DNA from: Glaucostegus cemiculus
Taxonomy: Eukaryota
NCBI GenBank assembly: GCA_976551045.1
Contig: CDPCPM010000022.1
Coordinates: forward strand, 4,464,001-4,528,000
Length of the DNA stretch: 64,000 nucleotides
Direction: 5' to 3'
Below the pieces are notes generated by a model. The model did no database searches, was not told the origin of the DNA, and saw only the letters and a program-made list of their open reading frames with translations. Position 1 is the stretch's first letter; each line of letters begins with the position of its first letter. Made by a program: the position numbers and the translations under genes. Below, piece by piece: positions 3,240-51,588 of this stretch.

Positions 3240-4495
3240 ACTCATTTACTAAGTCAGGGGCAGGTCGTGCCTCACGAGCCTGATTGAATTCTTTGAGGAT
3301 GTAACAAAGCACATTGATGAAGGTAGAGCAGTGGATGTGGTGTACATGGATTTTAGTAAGGCGCATGATAAAGTTCCTCATGGAAGGATCATTCAGAAAG
3401 TCAGGAAGCATAGGATCTTGACTGTGTGGATTCAGAATTGGCTTGCCTATAAAAGATAGAGGGTGGTTGTAGATGGAGTGTATTCTGACTGGAGGTCAGT
3501 GACCAGTGGTGTTCTGCAGGGATCTCTTCTGGGACCCCTGCTCTTTGTAATTTTTATAAATGACTTGGATGAGGGTGTGGAAGGGTAGGTTAGTAAGGCT
3601 GCAGATGACATGAAGGTTGGTGGTGTTGTGGACAGTGTAGAAGGTTGCCGTAGGTTACAACAGGACATTGATAGGATGCAGAGCTGGGCTGAGGAGTGGC
3701 AGGTGGAGTCCAACCCAGAAAAGTGTGAAGTGATACACTTTGGAAGATCAAATTTGAAGGCAATAGACAGGTTAATGTCAGAACTTAGCAGTGTAGAGGA
3801 ACAGAAGGATCTAGGGGTTCAAGTCCATAGAACCCTTAAGGTTGCCACACAGGTTGATAGGGTTGTTGAGAAGGTGTATGGAGTGCTGGCCTTCATCAGT
3901 TGGGCTATTGAGTTCAAGAGCCACCAGGTAATGTTGCAGCTCTGTAGAACTGTGGTTAGACCACACTTGGAGTATTGTGTTCAGTTCTGGTCACCTCATT
4001 ATAGGAAGCATGTGGAAGCTTTAGAGAGGGTACAGAGGAGATTTACCAGGATGCTGCCTGGATTGGAGACCATGTCTTATGAGGATAGGTTGAGTGAGTT
4101 AGGGCTTTTCTCTTTGGAGTGGAGGATGATGAGAGGTGACTTGAGAAAGGTTTACCAGATGATGAAGCATAGATCAAGTGGACAGTCAGAGACTTTTTCC
4201 ATGACCGAAAATGGCTAACATAAGCGGGCATGACTGGAGGAAGGTATAATGGTGAATGTAAGAGGTAAGTTTTTTTTACACAGAGAGTGGTGGGTGCATG
4301 GAACGCACTGCCAGCAGAGGTTGTGGAGGCAGAAACATTAGGAACATTTAAGAGACTCTTAGATAGGCACACAAATGATAGAAAAAACTGGGATATGTGG
4401 GAGGGAAGGCTTAGATAGATCTTAGAGCAGGACAAAATGTTGGCACAACATCATGGGCCGCAGGGCCTGTACTGTGCTGTTATGTTCTATGTTCA
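3240..4495 (+). mobile_element. CR1-clade LINE, 5'-truncated, degraded ORF2 plus 3' end
   Basis: RT-like VDVVYMDFSKA, QG-x[26 protein letters not shown]; stops and frameshifts; ttctatgttc tail. Confidence 0.93.
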
Positions 4496-17656: not shown

Positions 17657-18121
17657 CTAAGAAAAACAAACACATTTATAGTATTTGGTATGGATTTTAA
17701 GAACTTATGTCCAACAAGCCAGTTATATTATTTCATGCTTCAAAATTCTTGAGAGCTCTGTAATTGGTGTTTTCAGCCTTGATTATCAAATTACAATGCT
17801 CAAAATAACTTGCAGAATGCAACTTTTACAAAAGTTAGAATTACTGAAGTAAACCTGATCTAAGACCAAAACGTTAACATCTTTAAAAACAGTCTTCATA
17901 GCAATAATGATTCAAAGAACTTACATGTCCTCATGCAAACAGCTGGAGGAAATTTTACTTTAATTTTGATGTTCTGTCATTTCTTCAGAACTCTTGATAC
18001 CCACCAGTCTCAAAATCTCCTCCTGATTACTGAATTAAAAAATCAACCTTCCCACTAGTCCATTTCGATTTTAACTGAATATACTATGCAAAAAGCAAAA
18101 ATTAAAGTGCTTCAGACACAC

Positions 18122-18439
18122 CTTCTTTGCTGTGTAACCACCTCCGACTGCTGATCCCAACACAAGGTAGCGAATTTTTAGTAGTCGTGTTGCTAGTCTG
18201 GCTAGAATGAAATTTCGATAGGGATAGTATCCAATTTTCAAAGGAAATGGCTTTGATCCCTTTAGGGAAAGTCTGTTGAAAGTGGAATATGACTGAACTT
18301 TAGAGTTCCAGTGCAGCCTACGCAAATGAACTTGAGGTGTATTCAAGTGGCGAACAGCTCTGGACAGTAAGCACAGTTTCCGGACAGGAAACTTCATTTT
18401 AAAACCAATATTGCTTCAGTGCGTGCCAGCAAGCTAAGC
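18122..18439 (-). CDS. OPA1: OPA1 exon 2 (targeting sequence, MPP site, TM anchor); main frame open only from ATG 18397
   Basis: Acceptor ttccag at 18440-41, donor AAG|gtgtgt; MKFPVRKL...YRNFILARLATRLLKIRYLVLGSAVGGGYTAKK; in-frame TAG/TGA upstream of 18397. Confidence 0.93.
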
Positions 18440-19980
18440 CTGGAAGAGAAAAAAATAAGTACTAGTATCATGTAAAATTGTTCAGTTCTACGTTGAGTTT
18501 ATCACATGAAAAAATTAAGGACTTCACCAGATTAACTGGATATTGGCAAGAGAGGGTGAATGAAAAAGATGTTCCAGAAAAAAAAAACCTCAAACTGAAG
18601 CACTTGAGGAGAATCTCAAGCTCAGGTTATGACAAGAACCCACAATGATTCATTCTGCAACTCAGTGGGATTTAAATATTCATTGCAGTAATGCTTATCA
18701 TTGCAAATTCATTTTATTTTTGAGCGAAAATCAAAGAAAGAAAGAATACAATAATTAGCCTAGCTCGATCTTAAAAGAAGAATTTGAATTGAGAGAGAAA
18801 TTTTAAAATCTTTTGTTGTTAGAAAATAATAGAGAAGAAAAAACAATCGACTGTAGAAAGAAAGGACCTCAGGGATGACTTTACCTTAAAATAATACCCT
18901 GGATTTCACTAGGAACAATAAACAAAACACTATTTTGATTTCTGCAACATCCCTTTTATATAGAAAGGACTTTTTAAATAGATGTCGATAATCAGTTGGT
19001 TGGAGTAATGGAATGTAATTTAAAGTTGCATAGAGACTAAAATTTAACACCTGTATACACGACAGAAATGGCTGTCAAAATAATGGGAAATAATAGTGCC
19101 TGCTACAAATTCAACAGTGTTTTCAAACTTAGTTAAATGTGAATAGCTCATAGTTGCTATCTGATCTGACTAATTTTAAAAAAAGCCTCTAGTTAACTAT
19201 TACAGAATTCAAAGCCATGACTAGGAAACAAATTTCGCACAACATGTAAACACCCTTTTGAAGATAATTATTACTGCCAATTGAAAGTCGACAACTACAT
19301 ATGTGTAAGATACCATTACTTCAATTATTAAGCACTGGAAATTGCCTAGAATGTTAATTTAAATTTGTTTTAACTTTTCCTGTCTTTTTCCCCTCTCATC
19401 AATCCAATGATTTTATTTCTGTTTCCCTTTCTATAACTTATATGATAGTAAATTTATCCACCCTAAATCAAACTTCCTATTCCGCTCCAGCATTTTACTT
19501 TTCAATTTTTCAGTCCAGTTGTTAAAGGGAGATGTGCAAGTATATTCAATTGCCCAGTTTACCGTGCCACAACTTTAACAGTACAACTCCAGCAAAGCCA
19601 GATGTTGTAACATCCCTAAAATCAGCAACTGGGAGCAAAATAAATGAAGGCAGTCATCTTACTTCCCAGTAATAGTTCTTTTGAAGTCTACAATTTAGAA
19701 ATCAGTCACCAATTTGTACATGTTATCTGAATGAATATTAAAGTAACATGGTGATTTTGAACAGTTTGCTCCAAACTACATGACCTGTAATTTACTGAAA
19801 TATTGCATTTTTATGTAATTGATCTGCTATTCCCAGATATCAACTCTCACCAGGACACTGACGATTCCCATATGTTAAAATGAATGCGAAAGCAAGAAAA
19901 AGTGGTTGCCCTTTTACAGTCATCATTTCTTCAAAAGGTGCAATAATAAACTAGAACAACATCCTCTTTTTCATTAATTT

Positions 19981-20190
19981 AGAACATAGAACATAGATAC
20001 CTACAGCACAATTCAGGCCCTTCGGCCCACAAAGCTGTGCCAAACATGTCCCCACACTATTAGGCTTCCCCATAACCTTCTATCTTATTTACCTCCATGC
20101 ACCTATCCAACAGTCTCTTGAAAGACCCTAACGTATCTGCCTCCACCACCATCTCCGGCAGCCCATTCCACGCACTCACCACTCTCTGAC
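19981..20190 (-). mobile_element. CR1 3' end
   Basis: agaacatagaacataga tail; ccattccacgcactcaccactctctg is the reverse complement of the 3' ORF2 seen at ~4280-4310. Confidence 0.85.
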
Positions 20191-21254
20191 ACTCTCTGAA
20201 TTTAAGACAGGCAAATTCACACACTCTAATGACAAAAATACATAAACCCTTCCATCAGCCAAAATGCAGTAATGATTAAGAGAGTCACACTTAAGCCACT
20301 GTTAAACACTCACCTTCCCTTAACTAGAGCAGTAATGGTGGATTTTACCAGATCTAGGGCACAAGACAGCATTTTCAATTTTACTTGAAAGTGCAGCCTA
20401 AGTGCAAATTGTGCTCTTGTAGCATTTTAAACAGTTATAGTTCCTATAAGGAACAGTGCATTTATATTCAAAGATATTAAAGTCTGGTTGCCCAAATTAA
20501 TACAGCCATCTTGATGATTTAGAGGTCGCACTTTGTGATGCAAGTCTTCAAAGTACAGAATTCTATTACATCATAAAGTACAATATCAATGCTGCACAGA
20601 TGTGGTCTCTAGTAAATTAACATGATTGAATAACCGATAATTTACAAAATGAGTACAGCTTTAGATTTAAAAATTTGAACCCAAGTACAGAACGAACCAT
20701 TAACAAGGAATGTCAATGAGGGTAGAGCAATATCGAATGCACGGAGTTTAGCAATGCCGCTGACAAAATTCCACATGGCTGTTTGATTAAGAAAGTAAAA
20801 CCTCTTGGATTCACGGGAAAGTAGCAACATGGTTTATAAACTTATTCAGCAACAGAAAGCCAAGATTAAAAGTAATTGTGAGTGAAATGCTCTCTCCTTT
20901 GGGCTCTGCAGAGTACTAAGGCCTCTTGACGTCCCTGCATTGGGACAAAAGCACTAAACCGCAATTCAGAACTTAATGATGATACCAAATTTGGCAGCGT
21001 ACTTGATGGTGCAGAATGAATTTCTAAGCCATATGAAGGTGTCAATGGACAGGATGAGTGGGCAGAGAAGTAGAACACGGAACTCTAAATCACCAGTGGT
21101 TGTGTGTCCCCAGCTGTGGCCCTGACACCCAAACCACGGCGCACAACACATCAAAACAGTGTGTGGCTAAAACCTATTAACCCCTAACGGTCATTCCAAG
21201 CCGACCCCAGATGCTTCGTGTCCTACTGGAGGGGGTCAAAGGCAGGAGGTTGGA

Positions 21255-21740
21255 AGGACGGTCAGCCGGCCGGGCCCTGCCGGCCTACCAGTGACAGCCC
21301 GGGCGAGGGCAGGGCAGGGCCGGTGCCGACACCCCCGGCGCGGCACAAGGAGGCACGAATGGCGGGGGTGGGGGAGAGAAGCCGATGCCGGTGACACTTC
21401 CACGGATGGGTCACATTGGCCGGGGGAAGGAGGCAGACGGCGGCACCGATCCTACTGAGGCCCAGGCCGGTCCGGTCCTCCGGCGGCCGGTCCGGCCTCT
21501 CCATTTGATGGTTCAGCATGAAGCACCGTCCCTTGGTGTTGGGGGGTGGGGTGTGGACGGGGTAGGATCGGGATTCAGCCCCTGCCACTCCCTCACCCGC
21601 CGCTTCTTACCCGCTCGGCCACCGAGCCGCTGACAATCCACCCGGAGCTTCATTCACAAGGACCAAGAGGGCGCTTCCGCAACGGTGCAAACTCCGGCTG
21701 GCAAACCTCGACCCGAGCAGCTGGTTCCGCCTGAAACACA
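21255..21740. promoter_or_regulatory. CpG island / OPA1 promoter and first exon
   Basis: Only strongly GC/CpG-rich non-TE segment of the window; ETS/GABP-type CGGAAG at 21674-21679 (minus); G-run cluster at 21541-21572. Confidence 0.85.
21611..21653 (-). CDS. OPA1: Putative OPA1 exon 1 coding part (or uORF start), MKLRVDCQRLGGRA
   Basis: ATG in CpG island followed 43 nt later by a strong donor GG|gtaaga; phase 1 joins exon 2 in the LACWHAL frame. Confidence 0.65.
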
Positions 21741-21940
21741 CCCTCTAGCTGCAGAGAGCAACCTCCAGCTGAGAGGGTCCTGTTCCTTGATCAAAACAGG
21801 AAGATCTCTGTGCCACTTTCAGTCATGCCACAAAAAGCTGAAGAATTATTTCTAAATGATGGTGTGAGGGTGTAAGTAGCGTAATGCAAGCGAGAGAGAT
21901 GTTTAGAAATGCAATTATTAACAGCTCTCAAAGTTGATAG

Positions 21941-23040
21941 TTGGTGAAAACACCTCAAGCACCATCACACTGAGCACTGGCTCCCCTCAGGGTTGTGTGC
22001 TCAGTCCGCTCCTGTTCACCTTGTTGACCCACGACTGTGAGGCCAGATTCAGCTCCAACCGCATTGTTAAATTTGCCGATGACACGACAGTGGTGGGTCT
22101 TGTTACGAATGACGATGAGTCGGACTATAGAGAGGAGGTGAACCAACTAGCCGTGTGGTACCATGACAACAACCTCTCCTTGAATGTGGATAAAACCAAG
22201 GAGATGATAGTGGATTTTAGGAGGGGTCATCGTGTGCACGCTCCGCTGACCATCAACGGGTCTGCTGTGGAACAAGTACGCAGCACCAAGTTCCTGGGGG
22301 TGCACATCACCGACGACCTGACCTGGTCCACTAACATTACGGCCCTCACGAAGAAGGCTCAGAAACGCCTCTACTTCCTGCGGAGACTGAGGAAAGCGTA
22401 CCCACACCCCTCAGTCATGAAATCCTTCTACAGGGGGACCATTGAGAGCATCCTAACTCAATGTATCTCTGTTTGGTTTGGAAGCTGCTCAGCTGCTGGG
22501 CGGAAGTCCCTCCAGAAGATAGTTAAGGCTGCGGAGTGGATCATAGGTGTCTCGCTTCCATCCCTCGCAGACATATACAAAGACCGTTGTGTGAGGAAGA
22601 CCAAAAGCATAATGGCCGACCCCTCTCACCCCTCCCACCACCTCTTCACAATTTTGCCATCAGGGAGGAGGCTTAAATGTATCAGGGCAAGAATGTCCAG
22701 GCTGAACAATAGCTTCTTTCCGCAAGCCGTAAGAACTGCAAACTCTCTCATCCCTCCATCTTCCTTTGTTAACACTAGGAGATGCTAGGTGCACAGAAAT
22801 GCACCAGCACTTTAAATGCCCGTCACCAGCCCGTTCACTTTAAGATCTATTTATGTAAGAACTAATGGGTAATGTTTTGTACTGTGTATTCTGCCAAGTG
22901 TGTATGTGTCTCTCTGTTGGTTGTTATGTTATTCTTTTTTATGAGACGTGTTCCTGTGGAGGACGGTATCTCGCTCCTATGCGTACCATGTATGTATATG
23001 GTTGTGACAATAAAACTGATTCTGATTCTGATTCTGATAG
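21941..23040 (+). mobile_element. Young 5'-truncated Rex1/Babar-type LINE with uninterrupted RT C-terminal ORF
   Basis: ~280 open codons: GSPQGCVLSPLLF, KFADDT, KFLGVHI, LPSGRR, SFFPQAVR; aataaa plus (ATTCTG)n tail; candidate TSD tgatag. Confidence 0.92.
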
Positions 23041-23999
23041 CTGTTAGTATAAGTAATTGCATTTCGCCCAGAAAATTCAGTAAAATAAACATTTTTATGA
23101 CTTCAGTTTCCCTCCTGTTCCCACCACTAGTTCTGTGCCTTAATTTATTGATTTTAGTGAAATTCAACAGAATTTTCAAAAACAATACCTTCTCCCTGGG
23201 CCCTCTCCAGTCTTCTCTTTAAGACACTGACTAATGATTTTGAACAGAAGCTTGATTTCATTTACAGCTGCGTGCAGTTGTTTGTGAGGCAGAGGGAAGC
23301 TTATGTTGAAGTGGAGCATAAACACCAACATGGCCTGGTTCTTTGCTGCCTCCTATACATACCCCGATGGAACTAGATATCATTTATCTTCAGCCTTTGC
23401 CAAAATGTTGGAATTAATTGTAAAGGATGAATCTTTAGCACACGTGCTGCTAGCTGTGGTCATATCAAGTATAACTTACTCGATATGGTATGGCTTTATC
23501 GTACATGTGGAACACTGTATTTTTAAAAATCTTGTCCCATTTCTCTAAGGTAAGACCATTCATCCATACTCACAGTTACAATATGTGATGGAAGATGCTC
23601 GTTTTATTTGTTTTTGTAATCTTGGCAGCAAAAATACACAACTGCTGTAAGACCATCCTGAATAGAGTCCGGGCAATGTGATCAGAATCCAAAGCAGCAC
23701 AAATGAGGTTCATGTGAGGTGTTAGAAAACTATTAGTCCTTTAGTTCAGGTCAGCTTTTAATTTTATACCTGAGCTGACTACTTAGCATTCCGTCTGCGA
23801 CAGCAGTTTACCTGCCATGAAGCTCATTGCTGTGGAGCAAGGTGCCAGTAGCTATGCTGAATTGTGTACAGTTCCATTGGGAACTGCATAGGTCCTATTT
23901 GCTGTTTTAAACTTGTATTTGGTAACCATAACATTTTTTTGCGAGGAACCAAATTTAGCATACCAAGAAAAGGGTGAAATCCATTTTGGAGGATAAGCT

Positions 24000-25090
24000 G
24001 CTTAGAAAATAATAACATGATTAGGCAAAATCAAACATGGCTTCATTAAAGGGACATTGTTTGATGAATCTGATGTGAGTCTTTTGAGGATAAAACTAGC
24101 TGGGGATTTGGTGGATGCATGGACTTTCAAAAGGCATTTATCAGGGTGCCTCACAAAAAGTTGTCACAAATAATCAGAGCTCATGGGGAAGGGGATAACA
24201 TATGGAAAGAGGATTCATTAAAGGGCAGAAGACAGTATAGTATATGGCTTTCAGGCTGGCAGACTGTTGCAATGGAAACTCAACTATTCACAGTTTCTAT
24301 TAATGATGAAAAGATCAAGGGTTATGGATCACAGTTTGCTGATGGTTCAAAGACAAATGGGAGAATCAACTCTGAGGACAAAAAAGGATTCTTCAATGGA
24401 ATACTGATAGACTAAATGAATGGGCGGTTGGATAGTGGATGGAGGAGAATGTGGGAAATATGGGGTTATTCACTTTGGTGGGAAGAATTGAGGAGCTGTT
24501 GTTTTAAATAATGAGAAATCAGTAAATATTAGTCTAAAGAGGGATCTTGGTGTGCTGGTTCATGAAATGCAATAAGTAACCATGCAGGTACAACAAACAA
24601 TTAGGAAGGCAAATAATAGGCTTTGGCGCAAGTGTTGGAATTTGGAAGTAAGGAAGTCTTGCAGAAATTGTACAAGGCTTTTGGTGGAATGAATCTTGTT
24701 ACTGTGCAGTTTTCCTCTCTGTGCTTGGAACAGGAATTTCTTGCCTTGTGGCAACATAAATTCATCTGACTAATTTCTGTAAAGAAGGACTTGTACCATG
24801 AAGAGAAATTGAGAAAAATTTGCCTTTACTTACTAGAGTTTAGAAGCATAATGGAGATCTCATTAAGGTGTGAAGGCTTTTAGCAGAAATTGACAGTGTA
24901 GGTACTGAGAGGTTTTCCTCAGGCTGGAGAATCTGGAACAAGATGTCAAGTCTCAAGATAAGAGATGGATTATTTAGGACTGAGCTGAAGAGCTCAGAGG
25001 GAATCCTCTATGTGGAATTCTCTAGGTCAGAGGGCTGTGAAAGCTCAAGTTACGATCGATAGATGTTTGGGCACCAGGGGAATTGGATAT
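24000..25090 (+). mobile_element. Degraded CR1 LINE
   Basis: MDFQKAFIRVPHKKL, SQFADG RT remnants; many stops. Confidence 0.85.
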
Positions 25091-25314
25091 TAGGTAGCTC
25101 CTCCAGTAGATTATTTGTTGCTCCAAATTCCAGCATAAGCAGTCTCTTGTGTCTCAGGTAGCTCACTTTCTGTTTGTATCAAAATTGATCAGTTCTGCCA
25201 TTGGTCATCCATCTGTAACATTGGCTCAGTTTTCTCTATCTCTCCCTCTCTACTAGCGTACTTTTACATTCCCTTGTTCACGTTATCTCTCTCTAACTGT
25301 CCCCATTTCTCAAT

Positions 25315-25602
25315 AAGATGAGATGAGAGATCTTTATTAGTCACATGTACATCGAAGCACACAATGAAATGCAACTTTTTGTAGAGTGTTCTTGGGGCAG
25401 CGGCAAGTGTCGCCATGTTTCCAGTACCAACATAGCATGCCCACGACGTCCTAAGCCATACATCTTTGGAATGTGGGAGGAAACCGAAGCACCCAGAGGA
25501 AACCCATGCAGACACGGGGAGAACGTACAAACTCCTTACGGACAGCAGCCAGAATTGAACCTGGGTCTCTGGTGCTGTAATAGCGTTACGCTAACAGCTA
25601 CA
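25315..25602 (-). mobile_element. V-core SINE with Rex1-like tail
   Basis: Reverse complement of V-core (tgtgggaggaaaccg...aacccatgcagacacgggg); tail ends gtacatgtgactaataaa plus (tctca)n. Confidence 0.85.
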
Positions 25603-25739
25603 CATCCCAGTTTATCCCCATAGCAGCCGTCACCTCACCCTATCGGAAATATTCCCTTTGTCCAATCCATTTCTCCCCCACCCTCACTGTAACTTTAAAC
25701 TAATTTGTTTCTCCTCTATTTTTGTAACTTATAGAAGTA

Positions 25740-25820
25740 ATTTTTACATCTTACACTGAACTGCTGCTGCAAAACAATACATTTCACGACATATGTCAGT
25801 GATAATAATTCTGATTCTGA
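25740..25820 (+). mobile_element. Rex1-type 3' terminal fragment
   Basis: ctgctgcaaaacaa..tttcacgacatatgtcagtgataataa..attctgattctg; same end as 46340-46422. Confidence 0.7.
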
Positions 25821-26399
25821 CAAGCAGAACGTCTCTGGCATTTTCTGTTTTTATTTCAGATTCTGGAAGTATTGCCATAAATGGTGCTCTTGAAGTGTAG
25901 GGTTGGGCAGAACAAAAACCATTCAAGTAAATTGAACAAGGCATGGAAGATTCTGATATACCAGATGTTTTACTTTTTTCCAGAGATGGTCAGCAGGATT
26001 TCATTCGAGTCAATGCTGAGTTGATCTTTACAGTCCTTCAGGAATGCATTCACAGATTTATGAATTTATGGAAAGTGAAGCTCATAAACTATAAAATTAG
26101 ATTTTTCAAGAAAAAATGTTGCCTGGGTCTGGGACCTTCATGGGATTGTGGATCATTAAACTCCTGAACCACCTTCTGGTTTGACATTTCAGCTTCTGCC
26201 ATGAACCAATGGAAGTTTGCTGAACTGAGATAAGATCAACTTAAAGGTGAGCCATGTTCAAGTGGGTATTTCAAATAATTAAATTCCTTTCTTTTTCCTG
26301 CTTTTCCCCCCTAGGTGCTGACTGACCAACTGCATATTTCTAGCATTTACTGTTTTTATTTTGAAATTGTTTGACTTTCATGTAGTGATTTTGGTGATG

Positions 26400-50028: not shown

Positions 50029-50819
50029 GTGAGCAATTTTCAGTGCCGATATTTTGCTATTTGATAGCTGAGAACTGTGTCTGTGCACTTAATTCACCAC
50101 AGTGATTCATTCTAGTTAGCTTTTGTTTCACGACACATCACTCATCCCTTACAAACTTTCTCAATTCTTGTGCTTTTTTTATTGAACTTTTGATCCCTTG
50201 AACAAACCTAGCTTCTCTTGCTTAAGCCAGTGCAACCTCCCCATAATGATTGGCTCCAGACTGCAGTCCACACTTTTCAATTATGATTTTATTACAGGCT
50301 GCTTCACAATTCAATGTGAATTTATGGGCTGCAGTGTCCTGCAAAGTGAAGCCAATGGGTAGGTTAATATTGATAGAAGTTTTTTTCACTTTGAACCATT
50401 TCAGCTGTACAACAGGAAAGTTTTAAGACTTTGAACCTATGTACTGGAAGGGAAAGAAGGGACTGTGCTGTATCCCAGTCAACTCAGGAATTTACTTAAA
50501 ATGACCATTGGCAGTGTAGTGTCATGAATGGAGAAGACATGGCATTTTATTTGGTTACCTCTTTATTAATGTTGCAAATGTACTTGAATTTAGTCCTAAG
50601 CTTGTAGCTCATAAATAGTTCCCACAGTTTCAGGAGCTTATTTTAAAATCCAACTTCAGGAGCTTATTTTAAAATCTAACCAAAATCTAACTTTTCCTTT
50701 TCATTACAATCCAGGTCTCATGACACCAAAACACTGATTTAATTTGTCTCTTTTCTCTCTCATTTTGGAAGTGAATAAGGTATCAAAAATAGTTTACATA
50801 ATGCTGCTTATGTTTGCAG

Positions 50820-50951
50820 GATATAAAGAAGTGCCTTCCAGTGAGCTGGTACCTGGTGATGTTTTTATAGTTACGGGTAATAAGCAACTATTGCCCTGCG
50901 ATTCCGTACTGATCCAGGGAGGTTGCATTGTTAATGAGAGCATGCTTACAG
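50820..50951 (+). CDS. ATP13A4/5-like exon 9 (A domain)
   Basis: 132 nt, ...SSELVPGDV...[19 protein letters not shown]. Confidence 0.95.
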
Positions 50952-51588
50952 GTGAGAATCAGTCTTTTTCACTCATGTGTGAAATATTATACTACTACTT
51001 CTCAGGAAAATGGAGAGACAAAGTAACATTGATTGGCATTATCTCAGCTCCACACCACCTTGAGAGCAGCTGTTAACAATTTCCCTGGTGGTCCCTGTCA
51101 GTTAAATTGAAGCAGTAATGTAACAAAGTGATTAGGTTGGCAATCCTCCTTCTGTGAATCAAACATTTTTCCTGAATCTCTAGAGAAATTTAAAAAAGGT
51201 GATCTTTGCGGTTGCGGTTAACCCAAAACAATGGCAGGGCTATTAACAGATGCGACAGGTTGATAGAATCTCTTGGCTTTCACTTGATTGCCAGAAGAAA
51301 TTTGCCTCAATGGAGATTTTGCTTTCTTTTTCTTATCTGAGAATTTGTGTTGTTTTTGTTGATGAGATGTGGGACATAAGCAACTTTGCAAGCAGTTGCT
51401 CCGCAGAAAGATAAATTGCCAATTCAATCTTATTACTATCTCAGTTTGATTCTTCTGGGCGTATATTTCTGCTATCAATTTGCTTAACTTTGAAACTGGG
51501 TAAAGACAAAGTTCTAGCTTATTCAGAGCAATTATTGTTGACTGATTGCAATTTGTTAACTAATCTAATCTTTTATTTTTCCACATAG

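Follow-up and report, generated by a model that had tools for sequence, protein, structure and literature searches.

The OPA1 locus in the window

The window, the whole 64,000-nucleotide stretch of Glaucostegus cemiculus DNA analysed here, carries OPA1 on its reverse strand (Table 1). The OPA1 exons match, in order and as far as the window end, residues 1-392 (about 390 residues) of record P0144, and over the 91 residues queried the exon 2 peptide shares 99% identity with OPA1 records of sawfish and stingray. Orthology was assigned by a domain test on the sawfish record P0001, in which a Dynamin GTPase domain (Dynamin_N, PF00350) and an OPA1 C-terminal domain (OPA1_C, PF19434) were found; the latter falls beyond the window. 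Exon 1 is followed after 21611 by the donor GTAAG, and the exon 2 acceptor at 18439 is formed by a pyrimidine tract (17 of 18 positions) and AG. Exon 1 lies within the sole GC- and CpG-rich stretch of 18000-26250 (GC 0.68 and CpG ratio 0.74 at 21251-21750).

A preliminary description of this DNA had reported that the spliced frame from the upstream ATG stops one nucleotide before a second ATG at 18397, that the main OPA1 frame carries TAG and TGA ahead of this second start, and that the two starts have T and A, respectively, at position -3. Every one of these letters is present. The spliced upstream frame has 27 codons, of which 14 codons and one nucleotide belong to exon 1. The main ATG has A at +4 as well as at -3. 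Because both in-frame stops are found in the window and in the ray relative E (below), no start other than ATG 18397 is available to the main frame there.

Table 1. Features of the OPA1 start region, listed in the direction of transcription; positions are those of the window
Feature	Position	Strand	Details
Second upstream frame, 11 codons	21791..21826	-	edge of RNA coverage in relative E
OPA1 exon 1, 3' part from upstream ATG to donor	21611..21653	-	43 nt; letters read directly
Upstream ATG, weak context (-3 T, +4 A)	21651..21653	-	letters read
OPA1 intron 1, 3171 nt, GT...AG	18440..21610	-	junction in 7 + 2 RNA reads of relative E
OPA1 exon 2, 318 nt	18122..18439	-	RNA depth 12-19 in run X22
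5' 42 nt of exon 2, leader that once coded for outgroup residues 12-25	18398..18439	-	frameshift alignment
TAG, main OPA1 frame	18434..18436	-	letters read
TGA, main OPA1 frame; closes any acceptor lying upstream	18416..18418	-	letters read
2-nt loss relative to outgroups	18413..18416	-	-2 shift placed here in all six outgroup alignments
TAA closing the 27-codon uORF, 1 nt ahead of main ATG	18399..18401	-	retained in relatives E and F, missing from G and H
Main OPA1 start ATG, equivalent to chimaera Met26, -3 A	18395..18397	-	annotated start in 21 of 22 elasmobranch species
Predicted presequence, 62 residues, to the R-N/F motif	18212..18397	-	computed

Several further elements were observed around these exons. 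Exon 2 contains another AG 6 nt in from its start (18434-18435, minus strand), and the protein records of the houndshark Mustelus suggest that its exon 2 may begin at the matching place. Intron 1 contains a high-copy repeat at 19980-20190; the contig of the closest relative skips 19978-20200, so the repeat is either a recent insertion or has been lost in that relative. On the plus strand, a LINE reverse-transcriptase fragment of 288 stop-free codons (21922-22788; Pfam RVT_1, E 1e-14) sits at the margin of the CpG island, starting about 270 bases ahead of the exon 1 ATG; it may have inserted recently into the promoter of OPA1. A decayed fragment of the same kind, with a weak RVT_1 match, lies in an OPA1 intron (3589-4218, plus strand). 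Also opposite in strand to OPA1 is a P-type ATPase exon at 50738-51076 (Pfam E1-E2_ATPase, E 3e-11), which, by human synteny, likely belongs to an ATP13A-type neighbour.

RNA reads and the distribution of the short start

The reads examined over this region are RNA from relatives of the window's species, the best share of the window being 0.49. In relative E, the 21611-18439 junction was found in seven reads of run X22 and two of run X23, with the first mate on the plus strand, which in most stranded libraries corresponds to RNA from the minus strand; it was the sole exon joint among the RNA-read junctions listed. These reads extend 72 letters into exon 1, beyond ATG 21653, and thereby place this ATG in the transcribed leader. 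Run X21 had almost no depth on OPA1 exons. The 11-codon frame farther upstream may or may not be part of the mRNA, the depth of run X22 being 0.42 in the bin 21783-21900.

Differences in relative E were counted when present in at least 90% of reads. Run X22 contained no indel and no fixed substitution over 18384-18439, with a depth of 16-20 at the listed places in 18381-18405; these absences rest on a targeted comparison, a broader one having been crowded by the repeat at about 19980-20190 (294 difference and 34 indel rows unseen). The one change in exon 1, at 21649 (3/3 reads), converts codon 2 from Lys to Arg, as in Mustelus. Since relative E has neither an indel nor a change in the stop, its upstream frame and stop are the same as those of the window. 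The splice junction is thus confirmed in a relative, and the two bases whose absence had been suspected are missing from its RNA as well.

We then compared OPA1 protein records, taking the best 120 of 477 matches and, from two clusters, 15 of 30 and 15 of 19 members; the starts in such records are gene-model predictions and not measured N-termini. Among the matches listed, 67 of the 72 named elasmobranch records start with MKF at the same internal Met, and, of the 22 species of sharks and rays, 21 have short records throughout. The remaining five records all belong to Mustelus and all are extended, three by 27 residues starting MRLRVD and two by 20 residues. Ten skate-like records were left out of this count (four start at the Met, six nine residues later). 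Mustelus residues 1-60, used as a query, recovered five proteins, none spanning the extension, among cluster representatives only, behind which other extended forms may hide. A protein search of fragment length added one short-start shark, the whale shark (a partial record), and contained no extended elasmobranch among its 10 matches.

The chimaera, represented by one holocephalan species, has 25 residues ahead of the same Met in all 14 of the records listed, and so bears both Met1 and an in-frame Met26. Among the matches listed, none of 108 anchored non-chondrichthyan records has Met at this position; five more could not be anchored. The presence of this Met in the chimaera, sharks and rays and its absence from bony vertebrates indicate that it is common to cartilaginous fishes, and the long proteins of the chimaera and bony vertebrates, set against the short ones of sharks and rays, suggest that the long form is ancestral and the truncation common to sharks and rays, an order of events that rests on the single holocephalan species. 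The change is therefore far older than this ray, covering sharks and rays and not the chimaera.

Former coding sequence and its drift as leader

Traces of the lost codons can still be read in the leader. When the 42 leader bases of exon 2 are compared with the 14 residues that precede Met26 in the chimaera, the two align with one 2-nt shift at about 18413, at a score of 18 (shuffle mean -6.4) that was reached by none of 500 shuffles. For the other outgroups the corresponding numbers of shuffles in 500 were 1 (chicken), 4 (coelacanth), 7 (human), 7 (turtle) and 22 (sturgeon). Where records run on through the intron (chimaera, mammals, birds and a fish), a Ser immediately precedes the first complete codon of exon 2, which indicates that the intron of the outgroups is in phase 2 and that their exon 2 contributes 43 nt ahead of position 26. 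The window has 42 nt, a net change of -1, so that a further +1 near the acceptor would have accompanied the 2-nt loss; the exon 1 part is also longer, at 43 nt compared with 29-32 nt of coding sequence deduced for the outgroups. The 2-nt shift placed near 18413 by the preliminary description is thus confirmed by these alignments and is not the sole change. Among 31 distinct outgroup segments, a Cys-x-x-Cys pair at about residues 11-14, within the cleaved presequence, occurs in 18, and its second Cys in 30; segments lacking the pair seem to come from records whose exon 1 is mis-modelled. The pair is gone from the shark and ray OPA1 protein.

The upstream ATG itself is common to two rays and one shark (window, relative E and Mustelus). 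Rays and sharks split more than 200 million years ago. The ray frame at 21653 begins MKLRVD and the Mustelus protein MRLRVD, six codons in place that were matched by 0 of 1000 shuffles; the whole exon 1 part gave 1 of 400. Six outgroup exon 1 peptides fared no better than shuffles against ray exon 1 in ungapped comparison, and with frame shifts allowed 127-370 of 400 shuffles did as well, a comparison of 9-10 residues that has little power; ray residues 3-4 bear a loose likeness to Leu-Arg of coelacanth and sturgeon. The earlier suggestion that the old start was kept as a uORF gains no support from the outgroup peptides, which do not rise above chance, although ray and houndshark share the ATG. 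Folding of the exon 1 leader was no better than that of shuffled sequences (z -0.74).

Three further relatives, F, G and H, are contigs from three RNA-like runs, in which 3 of 9, 4 of 6 and 6 of 11 differences, respectively, lie more than about 30 letters from alignment ends. The exon 2 leader before the ATG is 42, 42, 43 and 44 nt long in E, G, F and H, and so varies in length as non-coding sequence does. Relative F has one extra A and keeps the stop, now 2 nt from the start. Relative G has no gap; two changes delete its stop, and its upstream frame would overlap the coding sequence for about 26 codons (using window letters). Relative H, with two extra bases and no stop, has the frame in register with the main ORF. 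The gaps over 18350-18440 (none in G, one in F, two in H) all adjoin the ATG and none falls at 18413. At 80%, exon 1 of F, G and H had depth 0 on 21611-21730, so this exon has diverged there or another exon takes its place. The uORF stop precedes the main start in the window, E and F and is absent in G and H, and Mustelus matches the ray for six residues and then shifts frame; the upstream frame thus does not behave as a conserved-peptide uORF. Past these six residues the Mustelus extension follows other, non-ancestral frames of the leader, and, judged from the protein, it is probably a secondary re-fusion.

Finally, we examined the N-terminus that begins at ATG 18397. The ray presequence contains 13 Lys or Arg and no Asp or Glu, and the MPP-like R-N/F site (the slash marking the cut) survives at residues 61-63. 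By the cleavage motif the presequence counts 87 residues in human and chimaera and 62 in the ray; the human figure agrees with the mapped presequence of 87 aa (PMC13192942, as excerpted). In a simple in-house calculation, the hydrophobic moment of ray residues 1-18 was 0.57, the best amphipathic window starting at residue 1; six further short-start species gave 0.41-0.68, human and the full chimaera protein 0.33 each, the chimaera protein from Met26 0.48 (at residue 1), and the extended Mustelus form the lowest value, 0.21. These values suggest that the internal Met was usable as a start before the break. Because the short presequence is basic and amphipathic and keeps its cleavage motif, the mature long OPA1 is predicted to have the same N-terminus as in other vertebrates after the cut. 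That the targeting peptide was shortened, as first proposed, has thus been supported by computation (62 versus 87 aa). Human OPA1 has no fallback Met ahead of residue 125, its next in-frame Met, which lies past the targeting signal; a stop at codon 31 (p.Q31*) causes disease while the mRNA persists (PMC5571936, as excerpted).

A probable relocation of the start codon and its alternatives

Together, these observations make it probable, in our judgement, that the window carries an intact OPA1 whose first 25 former codons lie off-frame and whose translation starts at ATG 18397, a relocation dating from the common ancestor of sharks and rays. An in-frame Met at codon 26 would have arisen in the cartilaginous-fish stem, where it may already have headed a usable targeting helix; frameshifts could then have detached the upstream part at little cost, leaving it to drift as leader since. 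Most scanning ribosomes would bypass ATG 21653, with its weak context, and initiate at 18397, and leaky scanning is our best inference for the route to this start. Ribosomes initiating upstream would synthesise the peptide of 27 residues, terminate one nucleotide short of the main ATG and in most cases fail to restart, lowering output, so the uORF likely dampens OPA1. The 62-residue presequence would be imported and cut at R-N/F. Initiation downstream of a weak first start is amply documented (PMC7397870, PMC3025576; both in excerpt), and restart after short cellular frames favours gaps of 39-140 nt in the examples given in the accessible text of PMC10275272. Against this reading, the short start is not universal, Mustelus being extended in five of five records and the frame of relative H in register.

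That two bases are merely missing from the assembled window is exceedingly unlikely. The reads compared do come from relatives, and the contig of the nearest relative (X1) has six inserted letters somewhere in 18100-18708; however, the reads of relative E show no indel, the gaps of the other relatives lie beside the ATG, and 21 of 22 species are annotated as short. The start change is almost certainly real rather than an assembly error, and of the two options left side by side in the preliminary description the lineage change holds while the indel is close to excluded. It is also very unlikely that the ray regains a long in-frame N-terminus through a different first exon or acceptor. Nine of 297 donor-acceptor combinations are open from 21653, and up to four transcript accessions per protein in several sharks indicate that leader or 3' variants exist, but all nine combinations need an AG at 18413 (10 of 18 pyrimidines, compared with 17 at the acceptor used) together with a non-consensus donor, and the only exon joint among those listed is 21611-18439. 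The Mustelus models and the in-register frame of H could also be read as keeping a fused, long N-terminus that was ancestral in sharks and rays and lost by the others. This is quite improbable: the short state is found in 21 of 22 species, two of Scyliorhinus among them, and the Mustelus extension has non-ancestral frames and the lowest moment. Scyliorhinus and Mustelus belong to the same order.

The close spacing of stop and start raises the question of a selected stop-restart coupling, in which the uORF would be finished and translation resumed at the ATG one base on. The gap is 1 nt in the window and relative E and 2 nt in F, within the limit of less than about 20 nt needed by the viral form, yet far from the gaps favoured after short cellular frames (PMC10275272, accessible text). 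With the stop lost in G and H and the Mustelus frame fused, the geometry is not conserved; a stop adjoining the start is only one of several states, and this speaks against selection for stop-restart, a coupling that we regard as improbable. Stop-restart, one of the two routes first proposed, is accordingly disfavoured, the stop having been lost in two of four relatives and shifted in a third. More readily, though still tentatively, the upstream ATG might be a selected element that tunes OPA1 output, possibly under stress, whatever the form of the leader, which would extend the relocation reading. The start and next codons shared by ray and houndshark, and the single listed exon 1 change of relative E, to the Mustelus residue, fit such a role, as does the finding that conservation is generally higher for the start codons of uORFs than for the peptides they encode (PMC7889888, as excerpted). 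However, exon 1 had no depth in F, G and H, the ATG has been seen in three lineages only, and what is conserved may be promoter or leader DNA within a CpG island. A stronger version, in which the ancestral OPA1 start was co-opted in sharks and rays as selected translational control, its ATG being retained while changes of one or two bases next to the main start flip the frame between separate, overlapping and fused forms, setting dose or import by lineage, we consider unlikely.

Relative to other vertebrates, the ray gene keeps its exon order and cleavage motif and an exon 2 peptide almost identical to those of sawfish and stingray; it differs in a presequence of 62 rather than 86-87 residues, in an exon 1 that is non-coding for the main protein and in the loss of the Cys pair near outgroup residues 11-14. 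Zhang et al. divide canonical uORFs into three classes, namely separate, overlapping and N-terminal extension (PMC7889888, as excerpted). The ray uORF resembles canonical ones in its leader AUG, weak context and a start kept better than the peptide; unlike them, it occupies in part what was once coding sequence of the gene itself, and its relation to the main ORF differs between species. In-frame AUGs within the first ~30 codons have been reported as conserved secondary starts (Bazykin and Kochetov, PMC3025576; Benitez-Cantos et al., PMC7397870; both in excerpt). The chimaera, with its in-frame AUG at codon 26, resembles such genes, whereas in sharks and rays the secondary start became the sole in-frame one clade-wide and the upstream part decayed. 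Human early stop alleles (p.Q31*, W2*, R52*; PMC5571936, as excerpted) offer another parallel: those of the p.Q31* type likewise head the OPA1 mRNA with a short frame of about 30 codons and escape decay, but they cause optic atrophy, the next in-frame Met, at 125, providing no rescue start. Viral TURBS termination-reinitiation shares with the ray a stop and start within a few bases (PMC10275272, accessible text); among rays neither this spacing nor even the stop is conserved.

A human OPA1 isoform linked to a uORF is mentioned in the accessible text of PMC11578521. Among the accessible papers listed on OPA1 in elasmobranchs, sharks or cartilaginous fish, or on its uORFs, judged by their titles and the openings of their abstracts and with subscription journals mostly outside, none describes this start change. 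In their accessible parts, PMC6622160, on OPA1 evolution, mentions no shark or chimaera, PMC11974929 does not mention OPA1, PMC8120690 makes general MPP statements only, and PMC10645107, PMC8835746 and PMC10456901 have nothing on a change of the OPA1 start. The short shark and ray proteins are already in public annotation and the process is of a known kind; the case is new and well dated. The surprise is limited to that extent, and the mature protein is predicted to be unchanged.

For annotators, these data mean that the break in the OPA1 frame is not an error to be patched. They also suggest that presequence residues 1-25, with their conserved Cys pair, may be dispensable for import. The steps of a start-codon move are visible, with the intermediate alive in the chimaera, and for a human disease gene that is sensitive to dosage the locus offers a clean natural experiment with a date.
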